Positions 14,403-62,806 of a stretch of DNA of 64,000 bases are shown here, in pieces; position 1 is the first letter of the stretch, and every line of letters starts with the position of its first letter. This DNA comes from Mustelus asterias (lineage: Eukaryota): the NCBI RefSeq assembly GCF_964213995.1, contig NC_135817.1:70866001-70930000 (forward strand), given 5' to 3'. A model generated the notes under the pieces. The model was not told the DNA's origin, did not search any database, and saw only the letters and a list, made by a program, of their open reading frames with translations. Position numbers and translations under genes: made by a program.

Positions 14403-15609
14403 CGTGGGTGTACCTGCACCTTAGGCACTGCAACGGTCCGAGAAGGCAGCTAACCACCACCTTCTCAAGGGCAACAAGGGATAGACAATAAAACTTGGTT
14501 TAGCCAGCAATGCCCATGTCCCGTAAAATGAATAAAGAGAAAAATGTATTTTTTGGGGTCAGTGGGTATTTTGAACAAGTCCTGTTCGGAACATCAAATG
14601 TTGATGATCACTGAAACACTCTTTGAAAAGCCCTGATTGGCCCCGGGAATTTTATTTGATAACTGATTAACGGTTCAAGAGACCAACTCACCAACTACCT
14701 TCTCAAGGGCCATTAGCGATGAGCAATAAATGCTGGTCTAGCCAGCGACACCCAGATCCCATGATGAATAATAATAAAAAAACATAAAGTAAACTACAGC
14801 AAGAGGTGAGGAAGCAAATGAGCGAGAAAAAGAAGTATCATTCTTTTACCGCCTTGCTCAATAGGTGCAGTTCTTCAATGGCATTACATAAGATACCTTA
14901 GTACACTAAATGCCATTATTGTGTGTCACACACAGTGAAAACATTTCAAACCTCATGTTTTATAGTGTGAGAAAACTACTTACTGGAAATAAACATGCGA
15001 TTATTCGTCAAGTATAAGAGTTATATCATGTTTGCTGGCTTTCAATTTAGCATTCTTTAATTTCATACATAAATAATCTCATGACCTTTTTTGGTTAATG
15101 ATATCGTGACAACTCAAAGCAGGCAGCCGAGCATGACGTTTTATTTGTTTATTAGGGCTTTAAAAGATAAATTGCTTTCATTAGAATTGTGGATAAGCTG
15201 AAAGGTCACCATCGTTTTGGTTAGTGTTCAGTTGTGTTTGTCTGACCACTGCGAAACATGCCGGAAACTGTTTGTACTCAAACATTTTCACTTCTAATTT
15301 CCATTTACTGTTCTTAAAGGTCACACAGAAAGTTGTAGATATTTTCAAATAACATCCTCCCTGTATTATTGATAAGTGATAAATTATACCTCTCTGTTAC
15401 ATTCCACACGTATCAAATTATTCGAGTCTGTCACATCTTTTTAAACCCTTTCTTTCCTAAAGCCGTATTTTATCCCACATCCCTGCCACCAGTGCACCTC
15501 AGGAATTATACAGCGTGTGAATCTTATTTTAATGATCTCCTAGTTTCCCTCTGATTTTCTCCCTCACAACAATGACAGTTCTTGCAGGCACAGTTTCACC
15601 AAGGTTCAC

Positions 15610-17940
15610 TGCTCCTCCAACCCACCCGCTCCTCCACCCACCCACCCGCTCCTCCACCCACCCACTCGCTCCTCCACCCACCCACTCGCTCCTCCACCCA
15701 CCCACTCGCTCCTCCAATCACCCACCCGCTCTTCTAACCACTCACCCACTCTTCTAACCACCCACCCGCTCCTCCACCCACCCACCCGCTCCTCCACCCA
15801 CCCACTCGCTCCTCCACCCACCCACTCGCTCCTCCAATCACCCACCCGCTCTTCTAACCACTCACCCACTCTTCTAACCACCCACCCGCTCCTCCACCCA
15901 CCCACCCGCTCCTCCACCCACCCACTCGCTCCTCCACCCACCATCCGCTCCTCCACCCACCATCCGCTCCTCCAAACACCACCCACTCCTCCACCCACCC
16001 ACCCACTCCTCCACCCACCCACCCACTCATCCACCCACCCACCCGCTCCTCCACCCACCCACCCACTCCTCCACCCACCCACCCACTCCTCCACCCACCC
16101 ACCCGCTCCTCCACCCACCCACTCGCTCCTCCACCCACCTACCCACTCCTCCACCCACCATCCGCTCCTCCACCCACCCACCCACTCGCTCCTCCACCCA
16201 CCCACTCGCTCCTCCACCCACCCACCCGCTCCTCCACCCACCCGCTACTCCACCCACCCACCCGCTCCTCCACCCACCCACTCGCTCCTCCACCCATCCG
16301 CTCCTCCACACACCCGCTCCTCCAACCACCCACCCGCTCCTCCACCCATCCGCTGCTCCCAACATTACCCACTCCTCTAATCACCACCCGCTCTCCAACC
16401 ATCACCCGCTCCTCCAAATCACCACCCGCTCCTCGAACCACCACCCGCTCCTCCAAACACCACCCCCTTCTCCACCCATCACCCGCTGCTCCACCCACCC
16501 GCTCCTCCAAACACCACCCACTCCTCTAACCACCACCCCCTCCTCCAACCATCACCCGCTCCTCCACCCACCCGCTCCTCCAAACCACCACCACTCCTCT
16601 AACCACCACCCGCTCCTCTATCCACCACCCGCTCCTCTAACCACCACCCGCTCCTCTAAACGCCACCCGCTCCTCTATCCACCACCCGCTCCTCTAACCA
16701 CCACCCGCTCCTCTAAACGCCACCCGCTCCTCTATCCACCACCCGCTCCTCTAACCACCACCCGCTCCTCTAACCACCACCCGCTCCTCTAAACGCCACC
16801 CGCTCCTCTATCCACCACCCGCTCCTCTAACCACCACCCGCTCCTCTAACCACCACCCGCTCCTCTAACCACCACCCGCTCCTCCACCCTCCACCCGCTC
16901 CTCCACCCTCCACCCGCTCCTCTATCCACCACTCGCTCCTCTATCCACCACCCGCTCCTCTAACCACCACCCGCTCCTTCATCCACCACCCACTCCTCCA
17001 TCCTCCACTTGCTCCTCCATCCACCACCCGCTCCTCTATCCACCACCCGCTCCTCCATCCACCACCCGCTCCTCCAACCACCACCCGCTCCTCTAACCAC
17101 CACCTGCTCCTCTATCCACCACCCGCTCCTCTAACCACTACCCGCTCCTTCATCCACCACCCACTCCTCCATCCTCCACCCGCTCCTCCATCCACCACCC
17201 GCTCCTCTAACCACCACCCGCTCCTCCAACCACCACCCGCTCCTCCAACCACCACCCACTCCTCTAACCACCACCCGCTCCTCCATCCACCACCCGCTCC
17301 TCCACCCACCACCCGCTCCTCTAACCACCACCCGCTCCTCTAACCACCACCCGCTCCTCCAACCACCACCCGCTCCTCTATCCACCACCCGCTCCTCTAA
17401 CCACCACCCGCTCCTTCATCCACCACCCACTCCTCCACCCACCACCCGCTCCTCCAACCACCACCCGCTCCTCTAACCACCACCCGCTCCTCCAACCACC
17501 ACCCGCTCCTCTAACCACCACCCGCTCCTCCACCCACCACCCGCTCCTCTATCCACCACCCGCTCCTCTATCCACCACCCGCTCCTCTAACCACCACCCG
17601 CTCCTCTAACCACCACCCGCTCCTCCATCCACCACCCGCTCCTCTAACCACCACCCCCTCCTCCAACTACCACCCGCTCCTCCAACAACCACCTGCTCCT
17701 CCACTCACCACCAGCTCCTCCACCCTCCACCCGCTCCTCCAACCAGCACCCGCTCCTCCAAACACCCACCCGCTCCTCCACCCACCACCCACTCCTCCAC
17801 TCATCACCCACTCCTCCAAATACCACCCAACTCCTCCAAACACCACCTGCTCCTCCACCCACCCATTCCTCCACCCACCACCCGCTCCTCCAACCATCAC
17901 CCGCTCCACCAAACACCACCTGCCCCACCACCACCTGCCC
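15610..17940. repeat. 2.3 kb C-rich minisatellite (19-23 nt units, CCACCACCCGCTCCTCYAH)
   Basis: Direct inspection; explains all the GGWRSGW/VEERVGG ORFs. Confidence 0.97.
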
Positions 17941-18060
17941 CACCTGTGACAGAGACTGTAGGTCATGTGTTAGACTCCTCAGTCACCTGAGAACTCGCTT
18001 TCAGTGTGGAAGCAAGTCATCCTCGACTCCGAGGGACTGCTTAAGAAGAACAGAAGAAGA
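17920..18060 (+). mobile_element. RTE-clade LINE 3' end
   Basis: Encodes TTTCPTCDRDCRSCVRLLSHLRT (C-terminal CxxC..H finger), then gtcatcctcgactccgagggactgc and an (AGA)n tail. Confidence 0.65.
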
Positions 18061-18169
18061 TTAAGTTATCATCCTTCATGTATGAGCTTGATCTGGCTAC
18101 TGGGAATCCATGAGCAGGTTTAGGGAAATAGAGTGGCCTGAGCAATGCCTCATCAATGACTGAGAGGTG

Positions 18170-19855: not shown

Positions 19856-22800
19856 TCAAGCTATCCCACTCCCTACCATCCTGGTGTGCTCCATGTGCCT
19901 ATCCAATAACCGCTTAAATGTTCCTAAAGTGTCTGACTCCACTATCACTGCAGGCAGTCCATTCCACACCCCAACCACTCTCTGCGTGAAGAACCTACCT
20001 CTGATATCCTTCCTATATCTCCCACCATGAACCCTATAGTTATGCCCCCTTGTAATAGCTCCATCCACCCGAGGAAATAGTCTTTGAACGTTCACTCTAT
20101 CTATCCCCTTCATCATTTTATAAACCTCTATTAAGTCTCCCCTCAATCTCCTCCGCTCCAGAGAGAACAGCCCCAGCTCCCTCAACCTTTCCTCATAAGA
20201 CCGACACTCCAAACCAGGCAGCATCCTGGTAAATCTCCTCTGCACTCTTTCCAGCGCTTCCACATCCTTCTTATAGTGAGGTGACCAGAACTGCACGCAA
20301 TATTCCAAATGCGGTCTCACCAAGGCCCTGTACAGTTGTAGCATAACCCCACGGCTCTTAAACTCCAACCCCCTGTTAATAAAAGCTAACACACTATATG
20401 CCTTCTTCACAGCTCTATCCACTTGAGTGGCAACCTTTAGAGATCTGTGGATATGGACCCCAAGATCTCTCTGTTCCTCCACAGTCTTCAGAACCCTACC
20501 TTTGACCCTGTAATCCACATTTAAATTAGTCCTACCAAAATGAATCACCTCACATTTATCAGGGTTAAACTCCATTTGCCATTTTTCAGCCCAGCTTTGC
20601 ATCCTATCTATGTCTCTTTGCAGCCTACAACAGCCCTCCACCTCATCCACTACTCCACCAATCTTGGTGTCATCAGCAAATTTACTGATCCACCCTTCAG
20701 CCCCCTCCTCTAAGTCATTAATAAAAATCACAAAGAGCAGAGGACCAAGCACCGATCCCTGCGGCACTCCGCTAGCAACCTGCCTCCAGTCCGAAAATTT
20801 TCCATCCACCACCACCCTCTGTCTTCGATCAGATAGCCAGTTACCTATCCAATCGGCCAACTTTCCCTCTATCCCACACCTCCTTACTTTCATCATAAGC
20901 CGACCATGGGGGACCTTATCAAACGCCTTACTAAAATCCATGTATATGACATCAACCGCCCTACCTTCATCAACACACCTAGTTACCTCCTCAAAAAATT
21001 CTATCAAATTTGTGAGGCACGATTTGCCCTTCACAAATCCGTGCTGACTATCCCGGATTAATCCGCATCTTTCTAAATGGTCGTAAATCCCATCCCTAAG
21101 GACCTTTTCCATCAATTTACCAACCACCGAAGTCAGACTAACCGGTCTATAATTACCAGGGTCATTTCTATTCCCTTTCTTAAACAGAGGAACAACATTC
21201 GCCACTCTCCAGTCCTCTGGCACCAACCCCGTGGACAGCGAGGACCCAAAGATCAAAGCCAAAGGCTCTGCAATCTCATCCCTCGCCTCCCAAAGAATCC
21301 TAGGATACATTTCATCAGGCCCAGGGGACTTATCGACCTTCAGTTTATTCAAAACTGCCAATACATCCTCCCTCCGAACATCTATTTCCTCCAGCCTATT
21401 AGCCTGTAACACCTTCTCTTCCTGAAAAACATGGCCCCTCTCCTTGGTGAACACTGAAGAAAAGTATTCATTCATCACCTCGCCTATCTCTACTGATTCC
21501 ATACACAAGTTCCCACCACTGTCCTTGACCGGCCCTAACCTCACCCTGGTCATTCTTTTATTCCTCACATAAGAGTAAAAAGCCTTGGGGTTTTCCTTGA
21601 TCCGACCCGCCAAGGACTTCTCATGTCCCCTCCTAGCTCTCCTCAGCCCCTTTTTCAGCTCATTCCTTGCTAACTTGTAACCCTCAATCGAGCCATCTGA
21701 ACCTTGTTTCCTCATCCCTACATAAGCTTCCCTCTTCCTTTTCACAAGACATTCCACCTCTTTTGTGAACCACGGTTCCCTCACTCGGCCATTTCCTCCC
21801 TGCCTGACAGGGACATACCTATCAACGACACCCAGTATTTGTTCCTTGAAAAAGTTCCACTTTTCATCAGTGCCTTTCCCTGACAGTTTCTGTTCCCATC
21901 TTATGCCCCCTAATTCTTGCCTAATCGCATCATAATTACCTCTCCCCCAATTGTAAGCCTTGCCCTGCCGTCCGGCCCTATCCCTCTCCATTGCAATAAC
22001 AAAAGACACCGAATTGTGGTCACTATCTCCAAAGTTCTCTCCCACAACCAAATCTAACACTTGGCCCGGTTCATTTCCCAGTACCAAATCCAATGTGGCC
22101 TCACCCCTTGTCGGCCTATCCACATATTGTGTCAGGGAACCCTCCTGCACACACTGCACAAAAAGTGCCCCATCCAAACTATTCGATCTACAAAGGTTCC
22201 AATCAATATTTGGAAAGTTAAAGTCCCCCATGACAACTACCCTGTGACCCCCACACGTATCCATAATCTGCTTAGCAATTTCTTCCTCCACATCTCTATT
22301 ACTATTTGGGGGCCTATAGTAAACTCCTAGGAACGTGACCGCTCCTTTCCTGTTTCTAACTGCAGCCCATATTACCTCAGTGTGCATATCCCCCTCAAAG
22401 TGCTTTTCCGCAGCCGTTAAACTATCCTTGATTAACAATGCTACTCCTCCACCTCTTTTACCAGCTTCCCTACACTTACTGAAACATCTATACCCCGGAA
22501 CGTCCAACAACCATTCCTGTCCTTGTTCTACCCACGTCTCCGTAATGGCCACAACATCGTAGTCCCAAGTAGCAATCCACGCCCCAAGTTCATCCACCTT
22601 GTTCCGGATGCTCCTTGCATTGAAGTAGACACACTTCAACCCATCTTCCTGTCTACCGGAACCCACCCTTGACCTTGATACCTTCCCCAATATCTCACCA
22701 CCCTCAACACTGACTTCCGGACTACAACTCCTTTTCCCACTCCCCTGACAAATTAGTTTAAATCCCCCTGAAGAGCCGTAGCAAATTTCCCTCCGAGGAT

Positions 22801-22873
22801 ATTGGTGCCCCTCTGGTTCAGGTGCACCCCGTCCTGTTTGTAGAGGTCCCACCTTCCCCAGAACGTGTTCCAA
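19856..22873 (-). CDS. CR1 ORF2: APE endonuclease + reverse transcriptase
   Basis: 1005-aa open frame; EN motifs YFNARS, ITETW, MGDFN, SDHN; RT motifs QHGF, DFSKAFD, GVPQGSVLGPLLF, KFADD. True start probably lies downstream of the called codon. Confidence 0.95.
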   Translation of the reverse strand: MEHVLGKVGPLQTGRGAPEPEGHQYPRREICYGSSGGFKLICQGSGKRSCSPEVSVEGGEILGKVSRSRVGSGRQEDGLKCVYFNARSIRNKVDELGAWIATWDYDVVAITETWVEQGQEWLLDVPGYRCFSKCREAGKRGGGVALLIKDSLTAAEKHFEGDMHTEVIWAAVRNRKGAVTFLGVYYRPPNSNRDVEEEIAKQIMDTCGGHRVVVMGDFNFPNIDWNLCRSNSLDGALFVQCVQEGSLTQYVDRPTRGEATLDLVLGNEPGQVLDLVVGENFGDSDHNSVSFVIAMERDRAGRQGKAYNWGRGNYDAIRQELGGIRWEQKLSGKGTDEKWNFFKEQILGVVDRYVPVRQGGNGRVREPWFTKEVECLVKRKREAYVGMRKQGSDGSIEGYKLARNELKKGLRRARRGHEKSLAGRIKENPKAFYSYVRNKRMTRVRLGPVKDSGGNLCMESVEIGEVMNEYFSSVFTKERGHVFQEEKVLQANRLEEIDVRREDVLAVLNKLKVDKSPGPDEMYPRILWEARDEIAEPLALIFGSSLSTGLVPEDWRVANVVPLFKKGNRNDPGNYRPVSLTSVVGKLMEKVLRDGIYDHLERCGLIRDSQHGFVKGKSCLTNLIEFFEEVTRCVDEGRAVDVIYMDFSKAFDKVPHGRLMMKVRRCGIEGKLADWIGNWLSDRRQRVVVDGKFSDWRQVASGVPQGSVLGPLLFVIFINDLEEGAEGWISKFADDTKIGGVVDEVEGCCRLQRDIDRMQSWAEKWQMEFNPDKCEVIHFGRTNLNVDYRVKGRVLKTVEEQRDLGVHIHRSLKVATQVDRAVKKAYSVLAFINRGLEFKSRGVMLQLYRALVRPHLEYCVQFWSPHYKKDVEALERVQRRFTRMLPGLECRSYEERLRELGLFSLERRRLRGDLIEVYKMMKGIDRVNVQRLFPRVDGAITRGHNYRVHGGRYRKDIRGRFFTQRVVGVWNGLPAVIVESDTLGTFKRLLDRHMEHTRMVGSGIA

Positions 22874-23632
22874 TTATCCACGTATCTGAAACCCTCCCTC
22901 CTGCACCATCCCTGCAACCACATGTTTAAGTGCACTCTCTCCCTGTTCCTCAACTCGCTATCACGTGGCACCGGTAGCGTACCAGAGATGACCACATGTT
23001 TTGTCTTTGCTCTCAGCTTCCAGCCCAGCTCCCGAAATTCCTGTTTTAAATCCCCGTCCCTTCTCTTACCTATGTCGTTGGTACCAATGTGTACCACGAC
23101 TTGTGACCGTTTCCCCTCCCCCTTAAGAATCCAGAAAACACGGTCCGAGACGTCACGGACCCTGGCATCCGCTCGGCAACAAACCATCCTCGAGTCTCTT
23201 TTGCTGCCACAGAACCTCCTATCTATCCCTCTAACTAACGAGTCCCCAATAACTATTGCCCTCCCGCTCTCCTCCTTACCCTCCTGAGCCACAGGGACGG
23301 ACTCAGTGCCGGAGATCCTCTCACTGCGGCTCACCACTGGTATGTCGTCCCCCTCAACCGTATCCAAAGCGGAATACTTATTGCTAAGGGGAACGACCAC
23401 AGGGGATCCCTGCACCGACTGCTTCTTCCCAGCCCCTCTCACCGTCACCCATCTATTTTCATTCCTCGGAGTAACTGTATCCCTGAAGCTTCTGTCTATG
23501 GCCATCTCTGCGTCCCTAATGATCCTAAGTTCCTCCAACTCCAGCTCCAGTTCCCTTACACGGTTTTGGAGGAGCTGCAGATGGATGCACTTCTCACAGG
23601 TATAATCAGCAGGGACACTGTCGTCGTCCCTC
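22753..23632 (-). CDS. CR1 ORF1: zinc-knuckle/leucine zipper + SGNH esterase (5' partial)
   Basis: CEKC followed by coiled coil RVRELELELEELR; GDSL motif VIGDSLVR, HIGTND and DGVH. The N-terminal part of the called ORF (23633-23715) is AT-rich flank. Confidence 0.88.
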
Positions 23633-23882
23633 AAAATATCTTGAAAACTATTGATTTTAAATAAATAAAGAATAAATATGAATATTTGCACATTCATATT
23701 TAAATGAATGTGCAAATATGTTATTTTTATTATTTCTTCACATGTACCTTTTTAACACAGTGGAAACATGTTACCCAGGACCTGAGCTTTTATGTTCCAA
23801 ACGTAAAAGCATCAATTGTCATGATTTCATTTTTGTAGTTGATATACTGAGAAAAGGCACTGCCTTCTTTAGAAAGCTATGG

Positions 23883-49474: not shown

Positions 49475-49710
49475 CATCAGCAGAGTAGAAAAGGCAGCTG
49501 TGGTTTCACACAGATTTTCTCACCTGATCCAGCACTCCAGGCAATTCTGGGAAAACTGCACCCATTGTGAAGCACCTTGGAACATTTCTTAATGTTATGG
49601 GTGTAAGTTGGCGTTTTAAATCATACTTTTATAACACACTAGCTAAGTATTTATTCTCTTATCAAATTTAGTGATTTCTGTTCTTATATCTTCAGGATGA
49701 GACAAATGAA

Positions 49711-49774
49711 ATGATGCCTCTGGGAACACAAACAGTCAAACTTTGTGTTTTGCTTTACTTCTTTCTCACTGCAG
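49711..49774 (+). CDS. Signal-peptide exon of VJ-C1 IgSF receptor (CD28H/TMIGD2-like V domain)
   Basis: ATG at 49711 gives MMPLGTQTVKLCVLLYFFLTA (hydrophobic core), ending GCAG|gtaag (phase 1). A pyrimidine-rich acceptor ttcttatatcttcag ending at 49695 implies a further upstream exon. Confidence 0.8.
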
Positions 49775-50952: not shown

Positions 50953-51264
50953 GGGTGGCACAGTGGTTAGCACTGCTGCTTCACAGTGCCAGGGACCTGG
51001 GTTCAATTCCCGGCTTGGGTCACTGTCTGTGTGGAGTTTGCACTTTCTCCCCGTGTCTGTGTGGGTTTCCTCCGGGTGTACCAGTTTCCTCCCACAGTCC
51101 AAAGACGTGCAGGTTAGGTTGATTGGCCATGCTAAATTGACCCTTTGTGTCAGGGGGACTACGAGGGTAAATATACGAGGTTATGGGGATAGGACCTGGG
51201 TGGCATTGTTGTGGGTGCAGGCTCGATGGGCCAAATGGCCTCCTACTGCACTGTAGATTCTGTG
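50953..51264 (+). mobile_element. V-SINE, CR1-like tail (leader-V intron)
   Basis: Ends about 50 bp upstream of the V-exon acceptor. Confidence 0.9.
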
Positions 51265-51314
51265 ATTGCAAATAGAAGATTGTGTATTATTTATCCTTTT
51301 TGTACTTTCTGCAG

Positions 51315-51674
51315 TGGGAGGCAAAAACCTGTCTGTCTTCCAAACACCGTCAGAGATCAGAGTGTTGAAGGGGGGCACTGCACGAATAAATTGTTCATAC
51401 AGCAATACAGTTGAACAATGGAGGATTATGTGGAAACGAAACACAAGCGCAAAACCATTATGTCAACGAATTGAAAATGCAAAGAATTCCACGTCTATCG
51501 TCCATTGCACAAAACGTAACTACATTACAGACGCCCCCTCAGCAAAATCCTCATCCTTAATAATCACTGATCTTCATTTCAATGACTCCGACATTTATTC
51601 TTGTGAAGTTGCCTATGAGATACCTCCCCCTCAACAGATGGAAAAAGGAAAAGGCACAAGTATCACAGTGGAAG
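51315..51674 (+). CDS. V-set (VJ-type) Ig domain exon
   Basis: Acceptor ctttctgcag|, donor GAAG|gtgagt, 360 nt, phase 1-1. LSVFQTP...RINC...IMWKR...DSDIYSC...GKGTSITVE: B- and F-strand Cys, C-strand Trp, DxxxYxC and J-like GxGT. Confidence 0.93.
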
Positions 51675-51925
51675 GTGAGTTTCACATCCACAACTCATTT
51701 ATCACTCTTCTGATTTTAATGCTTTATGTTTATCTCTATATTATAGGTAGAGAATTAGGGGGAAAAATCTCAAATAGCAACTTGCATTTATACAGCCCCT
51801 TTAACATAGTTAAACATCTCACGGTGCAGCACAGGAGCAGGTTCAAACAAAATTTGGCACCAAGTCACATAAGAGCAATTACTTGGTCCAAAAGTAGGTT
51901 TTAAGGACTGTCTAAAAGGAGGAGA

Positions 51926-52156
51926 CACAGTAAGAAGTTTAACAACACCAGGTTAAAGTCCAACAGGTTTATTTGGTAGCAAAAGCCACACAAGCTTTCG
52001 GAGCTGCAAGCCCCTTCTTCAGCACCTGAAGAAGGGGCTTGCAGCTCCGAAGGCTTGTGTGGCTTTTGCTACCAAATAAACCTGTTGGACTTTAACCTGG
52101 TGTTGTTAAACTTCTTACTGTGTTCACCCCAGTCCAACGCCGGCATCTCCACATCA
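51926..52156. mobile_element. Penelope-like foldback insertion
   Basis: 98-nt inverted arms 51925-52022 / 52026-52123 with one mismatch and a 3-nt loop; 13-bp TSD taaaaggaggaga (51913-51925, 52157-52169). Confidence 0.8.
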
Positions 52157-52988
52157 TAAAAGGAGGAGAGACAGATAGAGAGGCAGTAAGGCTCAGGGAT
52201 GGAATTACACAGCTTCAGGCCTTGACATGTGCAAGAACAGTCCAGAACTAGAGAAGCTGGAGGGGATGACGGAGAGGCACACTCAGAGAGGGATTTGAAA
52301 ACAAGGTTGAGAATTTGAAAGTTGAGGCACTGTCAGTCAGGAAGCCTGCATAGCACAGACGGGCAAATGGAACTTGGTCCTGGATAATTACAGGCAAAAA
52401 ACATCAAAGGGTGGAATTCTCTCACCCTTCCCGCCAGCAGGATTTCTGTCCTGCCGAAGGGTGACACCACCCACCCCCCCTCCCTCCCTCCCCCCAACCC
52501 CCCACCCCCTTTCCCTGAGGGTGGGACAAGTGAGACACACAAAACACCCGTAGACATTGGTGGTACCGGAAGATCCCACCAGGGGCCAATGACAAGCTGC
52601 CTCTGCCACTGGAAAACACACCCAGGGAGGGGGTGTGAGTCCTGGCCTAGCTGCATTCAATGTGTTGTAAAAGAGCAGACTGTACTGAAGGGTAAGCTAT
52701 ACATCTGCCTTACGTTGAGGCTGCCTCTCACTTGTTTCAGACAGGTGGGCTACACACCCATTTGCAGGTTCGCCTGAAAATGATGTCAAGTGGGCCCTTG
52801 GGCATCAAGGGGGTGGCCGCTATGCCTCTTCGATTTTCAATTGGCAGCCTTTTGTTTTTCAGATGAGTGACACATAGTTGAAAATTGCTCCTTGCATGTC
52901 CCCAAGAAGCCCGAGGGAATATTCAGTACAAACTAGCAAACAGCCTAAACCATTAGAAGTCTAATAACTTGTTACAATTGATTTTCAG

Positions 52989-53294
52989 CTTCTCCCACTG
53001 TTCAGTTAAGAGCAGAGACTTTGCCTTACCCTCATGAAGGTATACAGCTAATCTGCATCTCACTGGAGTTCTACCCTGAGAACATTCAAGTGTCCTGGTT
53101 TCAAGATGGACAGTTGATCACCAATGGCACCAAGAATGGGAGGCTCTGTGCTAACACTGATGGCTCATTCTCCATTATAAGCTTCCTGAATCTTTCTCTA
53201 TTTGACTGGAATGAAGGCAGGAATTATTCCTGTCAAGTGAACCACTCAACACTGTCTACACCCATCACTGAAAGGATTTCTGCTCCGAATGAAG
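52989..53294 (+). CDS. C1-set Ig constant domain exon
   Basis: Acceptor attttcag|, donor GAAG|gtaaaa, 306 nt, phase 1-1. LICISLEFYPENIQVSW...DGSFSIISFLNL...W..GRNYSCQVNHSTL contains the C1 signatures FYP..I.V.W and YxCxVxH. Confidence 0.93.
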
Positions 53295-53619
53295 GTAAAA
53301 ATGTCAGTTCGTTTTGTTATAAAAATCTTTGGACTCTGCAGACTTGTGGAATTTTAAGTTATGTGATTCCAATTACTTTGGGGTAGGATATACATACGAA
53401 TGTTGCACTTGTATCATTCTTTCTCCATCCATATCCCCCTTCCATGCCCAAACCTGACCTCGACCCTGGAAAAAAGCTGTTACCTCATTCACTTATAACT
53501 GCACTCTCAGAATCCCAACTCTCTAACCTTTGTGGCTCCATTTGCCACAATGTGCCTGCAGCTACTGATCTGCACAACTGCACCTTCACCTTCCATCTTG
53601 GATGTCCTGCTTTTTAATA

Positions 53620-54606: not shown

Positions 54607-55159
54607 TCTTAAAATTAAAAACCAGGACATCCAAGATGGAGGTGAGTTGCAGTTGTGCAGATCAGTAGCTGCAGGCATATTGTGGCAAATGGAACCATAA
54701 AGGTTAGAGAGTTGGGATTTTGAGAGTGCAGTTATAAGTGAATGCGGTAACAGTTTTTTTCCAGGGGTGGATACAGGAGGAGGTCGGGTTTGGGCATGGA
54801 AGGGGGATATGGATGGAGAAAGAGTGATACCTGATTCGAAATGTTGGCTCTATTCTCTCTCCACAGATGCTGTCAGACCTGCTGAGATTTTCCAGCATTT
54901 TCTATGTTTTTTTTTCAGCTCTTATCAACGTTGTAAGATATTTTCACCAGGGGCCCTGCTCCACCACTGATTCAGCCCCTACCGTGAGTTGATAGGGGGC
55001 TGGTGACAACTAAATATGCTTATTTCTGCTCGATGCAATAACTATATTTACCATTCACTTAATCAAAAGCAAACACTTACAATGCCTAATGTCCAACTTA
55101 CTTGCATGGGAGAGACTGTGTAGTGGTAATGTAATTAAATAAGACATTCAAAGGCCCAT

Positions 55160-56437: not shown

Positions 56438-58669
56438 CACACCTTAGACTTCTGACTGCATTTACACACCTCAGTTAGCAGGTAGATTTTTATTACAAGT
56501 TGCACAGATATCAAAACCTGTGAAATCACTCTTATCCAGGGATGGGGGATCCAGGGGTTCAGGCCTCAGTTCCATAATGCCTTCCACCATCGGGTAATCA
56601 CCTGATTCGATTTCCTCAATGTTTCAGGCAACTTGGTAAAATCTCACAATAGAGCCTTTTGTTTTATCTTTAAGATTGGTGAGGTGTTCTGGTCGTAGGA
56701 GAATATCGTACCCAAAATTAGGCGCCTATGCAGTCAGTTCATGACTACTCATTTCATTCCCAATAGTGATGTTAAGATTACAGGACACATTAGTCAGGTA
56801 CATTTTGAATGCTCCAATGAGTCCTGGCCATTTGGGTACCATGTGTTCCTCATAGCTTATTGGATATGATTGTTTATTTATCACAAAGAGTTGATGCTTG
56901 CTCCTATAACATATAACTCTTTATTCTCATATAAGCTGTCCATATGGGAACACTATCCAAGTCTCCTGTTACCTTGGTGCAATTGATAACCCCTGGTGTC
57001 AATTCAATTCACACACGGGAATTTCACAATCCAACAAATAATAGGGACAGACCCATGTATTCCTCTTCCACTGACAGCCTCCCAAATCTGGAGCAACCCA
57101 TGTAGTCCCATCCATCCAGGCTAACCTGGAGGGAGCATGTAAAGATCTCAACTAGAGCTCTGAATGAGGAAAAATTCTCAACCCGGAATAAAGAATGATC
57201 TTCTATGGTCTCTGGAATGACTGGGTTAACAACATCAATCAATGATCTCTGCATTAGCCCACTTTTGTCACAGTCCTGTAGGACTGGCATCACTTGGGTT
57301 AGTTCCCTCGTTAGGGTATTATTCAACATCTAGGCCGGAATTTTACCATCCCGCTCACCGCGGGAATCGGAGCGGACAAGGGGCAGACCATGGAAAAGTT
57401 TGTTGACCTCGGGCGGGATTTTACGGTTTCTGGACGAGCGAGATGGTAAAATCCCACTCTTCATGTCTGAGGCTTGTTTCAGGTGCACAATTTTAACCCA
57501 GGAGGGTAAATTCTCCTGCACGATCTTCCTAAGATTGACTCTGGTTTGTTCCATGAGCCAAGAACCATACATCATGCAGATGTCATTCTTACTGCCTGAC
57601 GAGATACATCTCCCCCTTTCTTGTATATTTCATTGATAATGTGGTCCTGTCACTCATCTTCTTCCACTAGATCACTAACTCTCCTAAGACTATCTCCTCT
57701 TCTGTACCCATCTGTTGTTGAGTCTCTGCTATCCCCTGGATAATTTCCTCTAACCCGTAATGTAATCGATGAACTGACATTTCCAAACTCGCAACATCTA
57801 GGCTATTCATTATGGACATCCCAGTGTTAAAAATCCTGACCACATCCACAAGGGGATGATTATGGTCAGTGAGCCTGGGTAAGATGCTCTTTTGCAGAGT
57901 TGGTGCAGACTCAATGGGCCAAATGGCCTTCATCTGCACTGTAGGGATTTTATGGTTCTATGATGGACTAGTGGCCGGAGGTCTCTTCCTTTATTCTAAG
58001 CTCACTCTGGCATACATTCAAGAGCAATACAATTTACTGCTCACTCCCTACCCATGGAGCCCCATTGCTACCATCTTCTTTCCTGAATCACGTTCATTCT
58101 CCTGCCACAATTTTGGTTCGAACGTCAGGTCATAGTTCAATATTGGAAAGGTGCTGTTGTACGGCTCACCATTTGTCAGGGTTCAGATCTATTATCTCTC
58201 CCCCCAGTCCCTGCTATTTACTCAGGATGGTCCAAAGCCCATGCCACAGCTTTAAGATCCTTGTCCCTTTTTGTAGTTGTACTTTGCAAGCACATACACC
58301 TTCTCTGAACATGCTTTTAGAACAAATACGTTGCACAAATCACATGGTGCATGTTACGATGGGCACGAAGGGCAGGGGATAGATCCTCCCGTGGGTTTTG
58401 TGAAATATGAATGCCTTTCCTGAGCAAGTGGAGGCGTACCCAATGAGAAGTGGGGGTTAAAACCCATTGCTTCAACCTTGACCGGTAGGGTAGGTCCCCG
58501 AGTATGGTTGTAAGCAGTACAGCCGGCTCTTTGTTGTGTTATGATTGAAGGGTTTTTGGAGATGGACGACTGGTTTAGATGGCATTAATACAGTGCAATT
58601 TGAACCTTCTTCTTGAACAATGGAAAAATCCCAAACCGCTTGCTTTAACTTCATTTGTTCCGCATTTCA
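56438..58669 (-). pseudogene. Degraded endogenous viral envelope / class I fusion glycoprotein-like sequence
   Basis: Ordered on the minus strand: fusion-peptide-like VDVVRIFNTGMSIMNSLDVASLE plus heptad segment (about 57850-57670), central fragments, then aromatic WWKALWN*GLNPWIPHPWIR and a hydrophobic anchor VISQVLISVQLVI (about 56600-56480). Many stops and frameshifts. Confidence 0.5.
57332..57457. mobile_element. Short Harbinger-type MITE inside the env-like remnant
   Basis: ggccggaattttaccatcccgctc...gagcgagatggtaaaatccc inverted ends. Confidence 0.7.
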
Positions 58670-58972
58670 NNNNNNNNNNNNNNNNNNNNNNNNNNNNNNN
58701 NNNNNNNNNNNNNNNNNNNNNNNNNNNNNNNNNNNNNNNNNNNNNNNNNNNNNNNNNNNNNNNNNNNNNNNNNNNNNNNNNNNNNNNNNNNNNNNNNNNN
58801 NNNNNNNNNNNNNNNNNNNNNNNNNNNNNNNNNNNNNNNNNNNNNNNNNNNNNNNNNNNNNNNNNNNNNNNNNNNNNNNNNNNNNNNNNNNNNNNNNNNN
58901 NNNNNNNNNNNNNNNNNNNNNNNNNNNNNNNNNNNNNNNNNNNNNNNNNNNNNNNNNNNNNNNNNNNNNNNN
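58670..58972. other. Assembly gap (303 N)
   Basis: Run of N. Confidence 1.
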
Positions 58973-59420
58973 GGAATGGAACCCCTTTCTATTCATGAAA
59001 CGTGCAGAATTCTCCTCAGTGGCCTTGAGGGTGCCGTGGCTGCGGTCTATGGCCCCCAGCACATTTGGCATTCCAGTGATGGCCACCAATTCTGCAGCCC
59101 AGGCTTCCTGCTGGGCCTTGCCCACGTCAAATTTGACATACTGGATTGCCCAGGCGTACAGAGCATCCGTGACCTCCCTCACACACTTGTGTATGGACGA
59201 CTGTGAGATGCCACACAGGTTTCCACTGCCAGCCTGGTAGCAAAAAGTTTAGGGCGGCTGTCATTTTCACAGCCACCGGGAGTGGGTGCCCCCCTATGCC
59301 CCTGAGGTGCCAGGTACCACACTGCCTCCGTTTGTAGGCAGAGCCATTGGCGGCACACAATGTCCGACAGCTGCTCGAAGGACATTCGCATCCAGAACTG
59401 CCGAGGTCTCCGCTCCCTTC
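58973..59420 (-). mobile_element. PIF/Harbinger transposase fragment (HARBI1-like DDE nuclease), frameshifted
   Basis: GGHPLPVAVKMTAALNF then REVTDALY...GMPNVLGAIDRSH...FMNRKGFHS; matches the Harbinger GAIDGxH and NRKGxxS motifs. Confidence 0.85.
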
Positions 59421-61631: not shown

Positions 61632-61736
61632 GTCCTCCCAGTGATAACCTATTCTGGATATCCCCAACAGTTAGCTGTCTAATTGCATTGATGGTGTTCG
61701 TGATCATTGCAGTGTTTTGGGCATGTTTAATTGCAA
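61632..61736 (+). CDS. Transmembrane exon
   Basis: Acceptor tttcaacag|, donor GCAA|gtaagt, 105 nt, phase 1-1. (G)PPSDNLFWISPTVSCLIALMVFVIIAVFWACLIA; uncharged hydrophobic helix in frame with both neighbouring exons. Confidence 0.88.
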
Positions 61737-62678: not shown

Positions 62679-62806
62679 AAAAAATGGTTTCATCGACAAA
62701 GGAATCAGCCGTGCCTGACAGTGGCCAAAGTGGGAGAGAGCAACCGAACACTGATGACACCGTCATCTACTCTCTGCTTGGTCCAGAGCTCTCTTATCAT
62801 ATATAA
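62679..62806 (+). CDS. Terminal cytoplasmic exon with ITIM
   Basis: Acceptor ttgttgcag|, phase 1. (K)KMVSSTKESAVPDSGQSGREQPNTDDTVIYSLLGPELSYHI*; VIYSLL fits the ITIM consensus VxYxxL. Basic KK stop-transfer is created by the splice. Confidence 0.82.

Follow-up and report, generated by a model that had tools for sequence, protein, structure and literature searches.

The stretch analysed here, hereafter the window, is 64,000 nucleotides of Mustelus asterias DNA (NCBI RefSeq assembly GCF_964213995.1, contig NC_135817.1, positions 70,866,001 to 70,930,000 of the forward strand), and positions given without a contig are counted from its first letter. The window carries an intact, non-rearranging receptor gene, gene A, which encodes a V domain, a C1 domain, a membrane helix and a cytoplasmic tail. 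Judged by its sequence, gene A is an intact shark receptor gene in which a V domain resembling that of CD28 is joined to an antibody-type constant domain. The exons are as follows:

49696..49774, plus strand: leader (signal-peptide) exon with canonical splice sites and an open frame, matching the N-termini of relatives P0003-P0006; the conserved start methionine is at 49711.
51315..51674, plus strand: V domain encoded in one exon together with its G strand, showing Cys22-Cys92, the additional Cys45/Cys60, EIPPP and GxG, from domain profiles and a 37-row alignment.
52989..53294, plus strand: C1-set domain exon, from PF07654 (expectation value, E, 8.6e-19) and splice sites.
61632..61736, plus strand: stalk and uncharged transmembrane exon, from splice sites and an open frame.
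62679..62806, plus strand: cytoplasmic exon with one ITIM (immunoreceptor tyrosine-based inhibitory motif) consensus (VIYSLL) and the stop codon, from splice sites and an open frame.

Spliced together, the five exons give 325 open codons that match the C-terminal part of NCBI model P0001 without a difference; the source labels P0001 as a houndshark immunoglobulin kappa light chain-like protein. This model has an additional first exon approximately 60 kb upstream, beyond the window, which is not found in the relatives. The V domain exactly fills a single phase-1 exon bounded by canonical AG/GT splice sites; no recombination nonamer is present in 51201-52000, where the sole heptamer-like word is coding sequence. 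Since the V domain and its G strand share one exon with no nonamer nearby, gene A does not rearrange, and the split V and J segments with recombination signals that define rearranging antigen-receptor genes are not seen. The automatic NCBI names would make gene A an immunoglobulin light-chain-like relic that pairs with another chain like an antigen receptor, and the family C1 profile does score immunoglobulin (Ig) constant domains highest among outsiders (84 and 76 bits, followed by UrIg-like at 72 and 69, B7-H6-like at 66 and SIRP at 51 and 43 bits; the UrIg-like, B7-H6-like, Ig heavy-chain and T-cell receptor (TCR) labels on C1 rows are assigned by sequence likeness). Nevertheless, the exon structure, the membrane helix and the tyrosine-bearing tail make this extremely unlikely. 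Antigen-receptor rows also group apart from the family in trees of the V domain (88/92, together with SIRP) and of the C1 domain (81/92 in 32 rows, with deep branches unresolved).

The V exon encodes a V-set domain (PF07686, E 4.4e-14), reaches 32.2 bits against the ICOS V-set profile PF15910 (cut-off 28), carries four N-glycan sequons and gives a structure model with a predicted local distance difference test score (pLDDT) of 93.2. An initial annotation of this exon had pointed to an LSVFQ start, an extra cysteine pair in LCQ...VHC, the FG loop YSCEVAYEIPPPQQMEKGKGT and an attached C1 domain; the motifs are all present exactly as quoted, the C1 exon is that at 52989-53294, and the human TMIGD2 motifs given for comparison (LSVQQ, LCQ...VC and C..AVEIP) stand in supplement 3 of PMC11599192. 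The V motifs are not chance, since they are conserved across a 37-row family alignment that contains some near-duplicate rows: both extra cysteines are present in 36 rows, PP in all 37 and PPP in 35. GxG occurs in 16 of the 37, all from cartilaginous fish and none among the 16 bony-vertebrate rows, and FGxG occurs in none. The proposal that the exon mixes CD28H and CD28 hallmarks does not hold, as E-I-P-P-P has already been reported as the probable primordial chondrichthyan CD28H sequence (PMC11599192). Nor is the extra cysteine pair specific to TMIGD2: three CD28/CTLA4 genes of the same genome carry such a pair, which is absent from the CD28H, CD28HL1 and CD28HL2 look-alikes, and the gene A cysteines are like the triplet's, the first of them aligning directly. 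In supplement 3 of PMC11599192 the pair is present in amniote CD28H rows and absent from shark and lungfish rows, so that it was lost or regained within CD28H.

Gene A belongs to a family that extends well beyond this shark. When a catshark relative served as query, 19 proteins came back, spread over sharks, rays, elephant shark and sterlet, and a profile search of 1.84 billion representatives added single V-C1 proteins from lungfish, turtles, bowfin, gar, caecilian, carp, loach, conger and characin (species as assigned by their sources). The C1 domain lies between the V domain and the helix in all complete relatives, and the elephant-shark relative has an NP_ record, a prefix which by convention denotes an mRNA-based entry. 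No bird or mammal member was present among 20 proteins looked up by name, although no search was aimed at absence. Automatic names vary across the family (Ig light chain, SIRP, tapasin-related, CEACAM, MHC), which indicates that it lacks a label. No description was found in the literature, including the supplements of PMC11599192, whose synteny figures are pictures and may hide names; in the portions used here, this 2024 survey of the CD28 family (Quiniou et al. 2024) admits receptors with one V domain only and does not list the V-C1 family. An earlier description in the PRARP or VJ-C1 literature is possible. In a first V tree of 49 rows (the CD28X row being incomplete) 23 family rows grouped at 89/87; this group was not recovered in a reduced tree of 39 rows, from which 10 long or redundant rows had been dropped, yet it was not rejected (p 0.459). 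Taken together, gene A is very probably a real gene of a distinct CD28-related family.

Profile scores favour a relationship of the V domain to the CD28 family. Within the same genome, the family V profile scored 55.5-60 bits against the CD28H, CD28HL1, CD28HL2 and CD28X look-alikes and 28-34 bits against the CD28/CTLA4 triplet, all of which are named by motif likeness to the tables of PMC11599192; outsiders reached 34 bits (TCR V) and 19 and 13 bits (two SIRP V domains). Profile-profile scores were 107.7 for CD28H/HL1/HL2, 68.3 for the triplet, where Cys45 and PPP came into alignment, and 39.0 for SIRP, although the SIRP profile was made from two poorly aligned rows, the only SIRP-named rows used, which tempers the last comparison. 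The best single-domain PDB chain was human CD28 at 45.6 bits (among the best 60 of 5069, where higher rows are multi-domain sums), and a PDB search with the single gene A V sequence returned antibodies and TCRs only. The ICOS V-set profile matched two places among 22 scored genome candidates, namely a triplet gene and the gene A V exon, and 8 of 15 family V domains. These scores bear out the CD28-family-like V domain of the initial annotation. As in CD28, CTLA4 and ICOS, there is a PPP loop, a second cysteine pair and a predicted mode of B7 binding, but gene A has a C1 domain and no YxxM, and lies on another chromosome from the triplet (contig C14). The CD28 family is defined by a single V domain (PMC11599192). 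Gene A has the FG-loop motif of that family (EIP/PPP, GxG) and a cytoplasmic tyrosine motif, but the in-frame C1 exon between V and helix departs from the single-V definition, and gene A is therefore not filed as a member, though predicted to work like one.

Two close paralogues, genes B and C, lie on the same contig (C17), and the three genes sit between BBX and a B7 gene of V-C-V layout, which is followed by CIP2A:

C17:70.696 Mb, strand not stated: BBX (HMG box, E 2.6e-34), before the cluster.
C17:70.765-70.773 Mb, minus strand: gene B, with an arginine at the start of the membrane helix.
C17:70.810-70.821 Mb, strand not stated: gene C, with a neutral helix and a YVNV tail.
C17:70.948-70.960 Mb, strand not stated: B7 neighbour, with leader, V, C and second V exons (from domain exons), starting approximately 19 kb beyond the gene A tail exon.
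C17:70.995-71.026 Mb, strand not stated: CIP2A, past the B7 neighbour.

The membrane arginine is present in all six B-type models that have a helix (three helix-less B-type models being uncounted). Gene A has an uncharged helix and a tail with the single motif VIYSLL, and a distal YxxL/V/I (tyrosine, with a hydrophobic residue at +3) occurs in 21 of 21 A-type and bony-vertebrate tails. Inhibition is predicted because the tail has VIYSLL; the output of gene A is thus likely to be inhibitory, and a costimulatory role, as the initial annotation would have it, is not what the tail predicts. The YVNV of gene C is the motif listed for shark and turtle CD28H (PMC11599192).

The constant domains of genes A and B have a different history from their V domains. 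A 339-bp tract (52964-53302 in the window), limited to the C1 exon with its splice sites, is 99.1% identical between the two genes, whereas their V domains are only 49% identical; other A/B matches are short stretches with many copies, read as repeats. In all four species that have both genes, within-species identity is 94-100% for C1 and 49-62% for V, and in the three tabulated A/B pairs the V domain is nearer to its orthologue in another species (63-81%). Moreover, C1 trees cluster by species. Gene conversion confined to the C1 exon appears to be the simplest reading of these sequences, and the A/B pair would be a sharp case of exon-limited concerted evolution. The low identity of the V domains means that A and B may see different ligands.

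The closest likeness of the V domain is to CD28H/TMIGD2 and CD28HL1-3, which share the YxCxxxxEIP(PP) FG loop, and GxG in sharks (PMC11599192), and give the top V profile scores; in addition, gene C carries the CD28H motif YVNV, and CD28HL3 is ITIM-bearing. However, these receptors have no C1 domain, the extra cysteines are absent from shark CD28H, HL1 and HL2, and the window cluster combines three signalling types. Their loci are marked by fsd1/stap2, man2b/kiaa0232, slbp/tacc3 and prkab1/pla2g1b (PMC11599192), in contrast to BBX-HHLA2-CIP2A here. The suggestion that gene A is the TMIGD2 orthologue was rejected: the neighbours found are BBX, the B7 gene and CIP2A, where the initial annotation had looked to those of TMIGD2, its tail has VIYSLL in place of the YxNx expected of TMIGD2, and a separate CD28H look-alike on contig C26 has one V domain, no C1 in the 120 kb searched, YVNV, and a helix like that of epaulette-shark CD28H. 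It is very unlikely, too, that gene A is on the ancestral line of amniote TMIGD2, with C1 lost later and the single-V shark CD28H a sister gene. Such a descent would suit the distribution of the extra cysteine pair and the YVNV of gene C, but it is largely refuted by turtles, which have both CD28H and a V-C1 family member; furthermore, cd28h is located with fsd1 and stap2 from sharks to tetrapods (PMC11599192), gene A being by BBX and CIP2A, and the genome's own CD28H match is the single-V YVNV gene on C26. CD28HL3, which has the locus prkab1, pla2g1b and tmem233 and two ITIM or immunoreceptor tyrosine-based switch (ITSM) motifs (PMC11599192), was also considered and rejected, as PRKAB profile matches lie on C13 and C8, not on C17 (pla2g1b and tmem233 were not searched), and gene A has one motif. 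Shark CD28HL3 was not found in the survey, in the portions used here (PMC11599192). Approximately 2 Mb from the C13 PRKAB match there is a CD28-like single-exon V (L008, C13:61427955-61428287), which could be this gene.

PRARP, as attributed to Fu 2019, is said to have a canonical J-like segment, two ITIM/ITSM motifs and a locus of its own. If gene A belonged to a non-rearranging VJ-C1 family that is already known (PRARP, or Ohta 2019's VJ-C1 genes) and was new only to sharks, this would account for the single-exon V with its G strand, the C1-set domain and the lack of rearrangement, and VJ-C1 genes have been described in tetrapods (PMC10751288). UrIg and UrIg2 share these features but are different proteins with three or more C1 domains (PMC12227049). 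Against such membership, which is unlikely, the window family has one motif, a CD28-like V domain, no canonical FGxG (0/37 rows) and no GxG in bony vertebrates (0/16 rows). A second gene, on C19 (66.774-66.827 Mb; L004, L082-L087), combines a V domain bearing the PPP loop with a divergent C1, has two ITIM-like motifs in a frame downstream, and fits this description of PRARP better than gene A does. It lies approximately 30 kb before another B7-type V exon and may be either a PRARP candidate or part of a paralogous receptor-ligand pair.

The B7 neighbour is likely to be HHLA2. Its first two domains have B7-H4 and B7-H3 as best PDB matches, and it shows the B7-type V-C-V layout near BBX and KIAA1524/CIP2A that marks HHLA2, with no direct match to an HHLA2-named sequence. 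HHLA2 is IgV-IgC-IgV (PMC10173190), and human BBX, IFT57, HHLA2, MYH15 and KIAA1524 (CIP2A) share one topologically associating domain of 3q13 (PMC8254995; PMC4467842); the neighbour was taken for HHLA2 because its layout and flanks match the human ones. IFT57 maps to contig C2, and hence the human block is only partly kept. Human CD47 and IFT57 presumably lie in the interval between BBX and HHLA2; a CD47 profile search gave no match anywhere, controls included, and hence no conclusion.

A B7-family ligand had been predicted for this V domain, which is a fair prediction given the V-C-V gene downstream, and modelling of the gene A V domain with the first V domain of the neighbour is consistent with it. 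The modelled complex scored 0.74 (median of three runs), compared with 0.00 for the best of three controls; runs agreed in at least 91% of contacts, and the partner had a pLDDT of at least 92. Among microbial pairs, 51 of 78 solved ones and 2 of 108 mismatched ones attained the mark for such scores; among eukaryotic pairs, 71 of 105 solved ones and 2 of 126 unrelated ones did. The predicted interface comprises residues 95 and 97-102 (EIPPPQ) together with the front sheet, and ligand binding would thus involve the FG loop together with this sheet, in the manner of CD28/CTLA4-B7 recognition. Following binding, the tail tyrosine of gene A would be phosphorylated and would recruit an SH2 phosphatase, gene B would activate through an adaptor with an immunoreceptor tyrosine-based activation motif (ITAM) by way of its membrane-helix arginine, and gene C would costimulate like CD28H, while the C1 domain, homogenised through gene conversion, would serve as a spacer or as a dimer contact. 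The locus would encode an inhibitory A, paired with an adaptor-coupled activator B and a CD28H-like costimulator C, with HHLA2 as the leading ligand. As a whole, the reading of gene A as an inhibitory checkpoint receptor that binds a B7-family ligand, likely the neighbouring HHLA2, through the EIPPP loop is held with moderate confidence. That gene A binds some B7-family ligand is probable; that this ligand is HHLA2 itself is a tentative suggestion.

Several findings weigh against this interpretation. The trees leave the origin of the family unsettled: support for grouping it with CD28 relatives is weak (69/76 and 53/91), and approximately unbiased (AU) tests reject none of five groupings, including the family with SIRP (p 0.188) and with antigen receptors (p 0.083). 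The phylogeny proposed in the initial annotation as a check thus placed the family with CD28 relatives at this level of support and left a SIRP grouping unrejected, and its link between costimulatory receptors and the antigen-receptor lineage is unsupported, being neither shown nor excluded by the AU tests and the C1 tree. Fold searches tie TCR V, VNAR, PD-1, CTLA-4 and CD28; NKp30 and SIRP are not among the rows listed, which excludes nothing. The elephant-shark member is without the extra cysteines, and the strict ITIM consensus is found in only 5 of 21 tails, with a single tyrosine motif. As regards the ligand, NCBI names a basking-shark relative of the B7 neighbour VTCN1-like (HHLA2 and VTCN1 being each other's closest human relatives; PMC13262535), Atlas searches put no name to the neighbour, ranking an HHLA2 cluster only 18th, with none among the rows listed for the third domain, and linkage to HHLA2 was examined in this genome only. 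In addition, the complex score may stem from solved CD28/CTLA4/PD-1-B7 structures remembered by the model and does not discriminate among B7 members as binding partners; because like complexes are already solved, it shows likeness and cannot pick a ligand among the many further B7-like V exons of the genome (23 matches).

Some of these points would suit a paired receptor like SIRP, NITR or NKp30 for a non-B7 or pathogen ligand, in which the PPP loop and extra cysteines were inherited from long ago or arose convergently, the B7 neighbour being a mere bystander. Paired receptor families, SIRP among them, typically show a V-C1 layout, inhibitory and activating members in a pair, and gene conversion; NCBI automatically names several family members SIRP-like, and the low identity of the A and B V domains (49-62%) fits as well. 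Such a receptor is nonetheless rather unlikely: SIRP V (13-19 bits) and C1 (43-51 bits) score below CD28 relatives and Ig C1, respectively, no SIRP or NKp30 chain is among the 60 PDB matches listed, and PP does not vary in any of the 37 rows, which span chimaera to turtle, whereas a pathogen sensor would change quickly. SIRP itself is V-C1-C1, whereas gene A has one C1, the PPP loop and one tyrosine motif. NKp30/NCR3 is likewise a non-rearranging V receptor for a B7-family ligand, reportedly with a membrane arginine like that of gene B, but gene A has a C1 domain and, going by the neighbours identified, is not in the major histocompatibility complex (MHC) region.

KIR genes are a mammalian, largely primate, expansion. 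In humans the checkpoint ligand HHLA2 has an activating receptor, TMIGD2, and an inhibitory receptor, KIR3DL3 (PMC10173190). The V-C1 family, read as an inhibitory B7 receptor, is therefore a direct candidate for the carrier of HHLA2 inhibition in other vertebrates. The family also adds a branch that could not be counted under the single-V rule of the 2024 survey, and sets a CD28-like V in front of a C1 domain, which elsewhere is characteristic of antigen receptors and MHC. A more speculative proposal, which at present is doubtful, is that an undescribed jawed-vertebrate-wide V-C1 branch related to CD28 is an ancient HHLA2 receptor set encoded beside its ligand, of which sharks keep inhibitory, adaptor-coupled and CD28H-like versions with C1 exons homogenised by gene conversion. 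If so, the C19 V(PPP)-C1 gene near a B7 gene would make linked receptor-ligand pairs ancestral, and V-C1 would be the ancestral form that gave rise to single-V CD28 receptors.

A further V and C1 gene lies on the same contig (L010, C17:53.415-53.417 Mb) and groups with ray P0130 and caecilian P0158. Within the window, there is a candidate small exon at 54919-54983, without which the gene A model works. The gene A intron between the C1 and membrane exons holds a minus-strand frame resembling, by eye, a Harbinger-type transposase (58575-59250), which crosses an N stretch at 58670-58972. Upstream of gene A, two long open frames on the minus strand at 19856-23751 (1005 and 332 aa) look by eye like an intact CR1-type long interspersed nuclear element (LINE) retrotransposon, and 15544-18064 is a long array of C-rich tandem repeats in which GC skew is strong.
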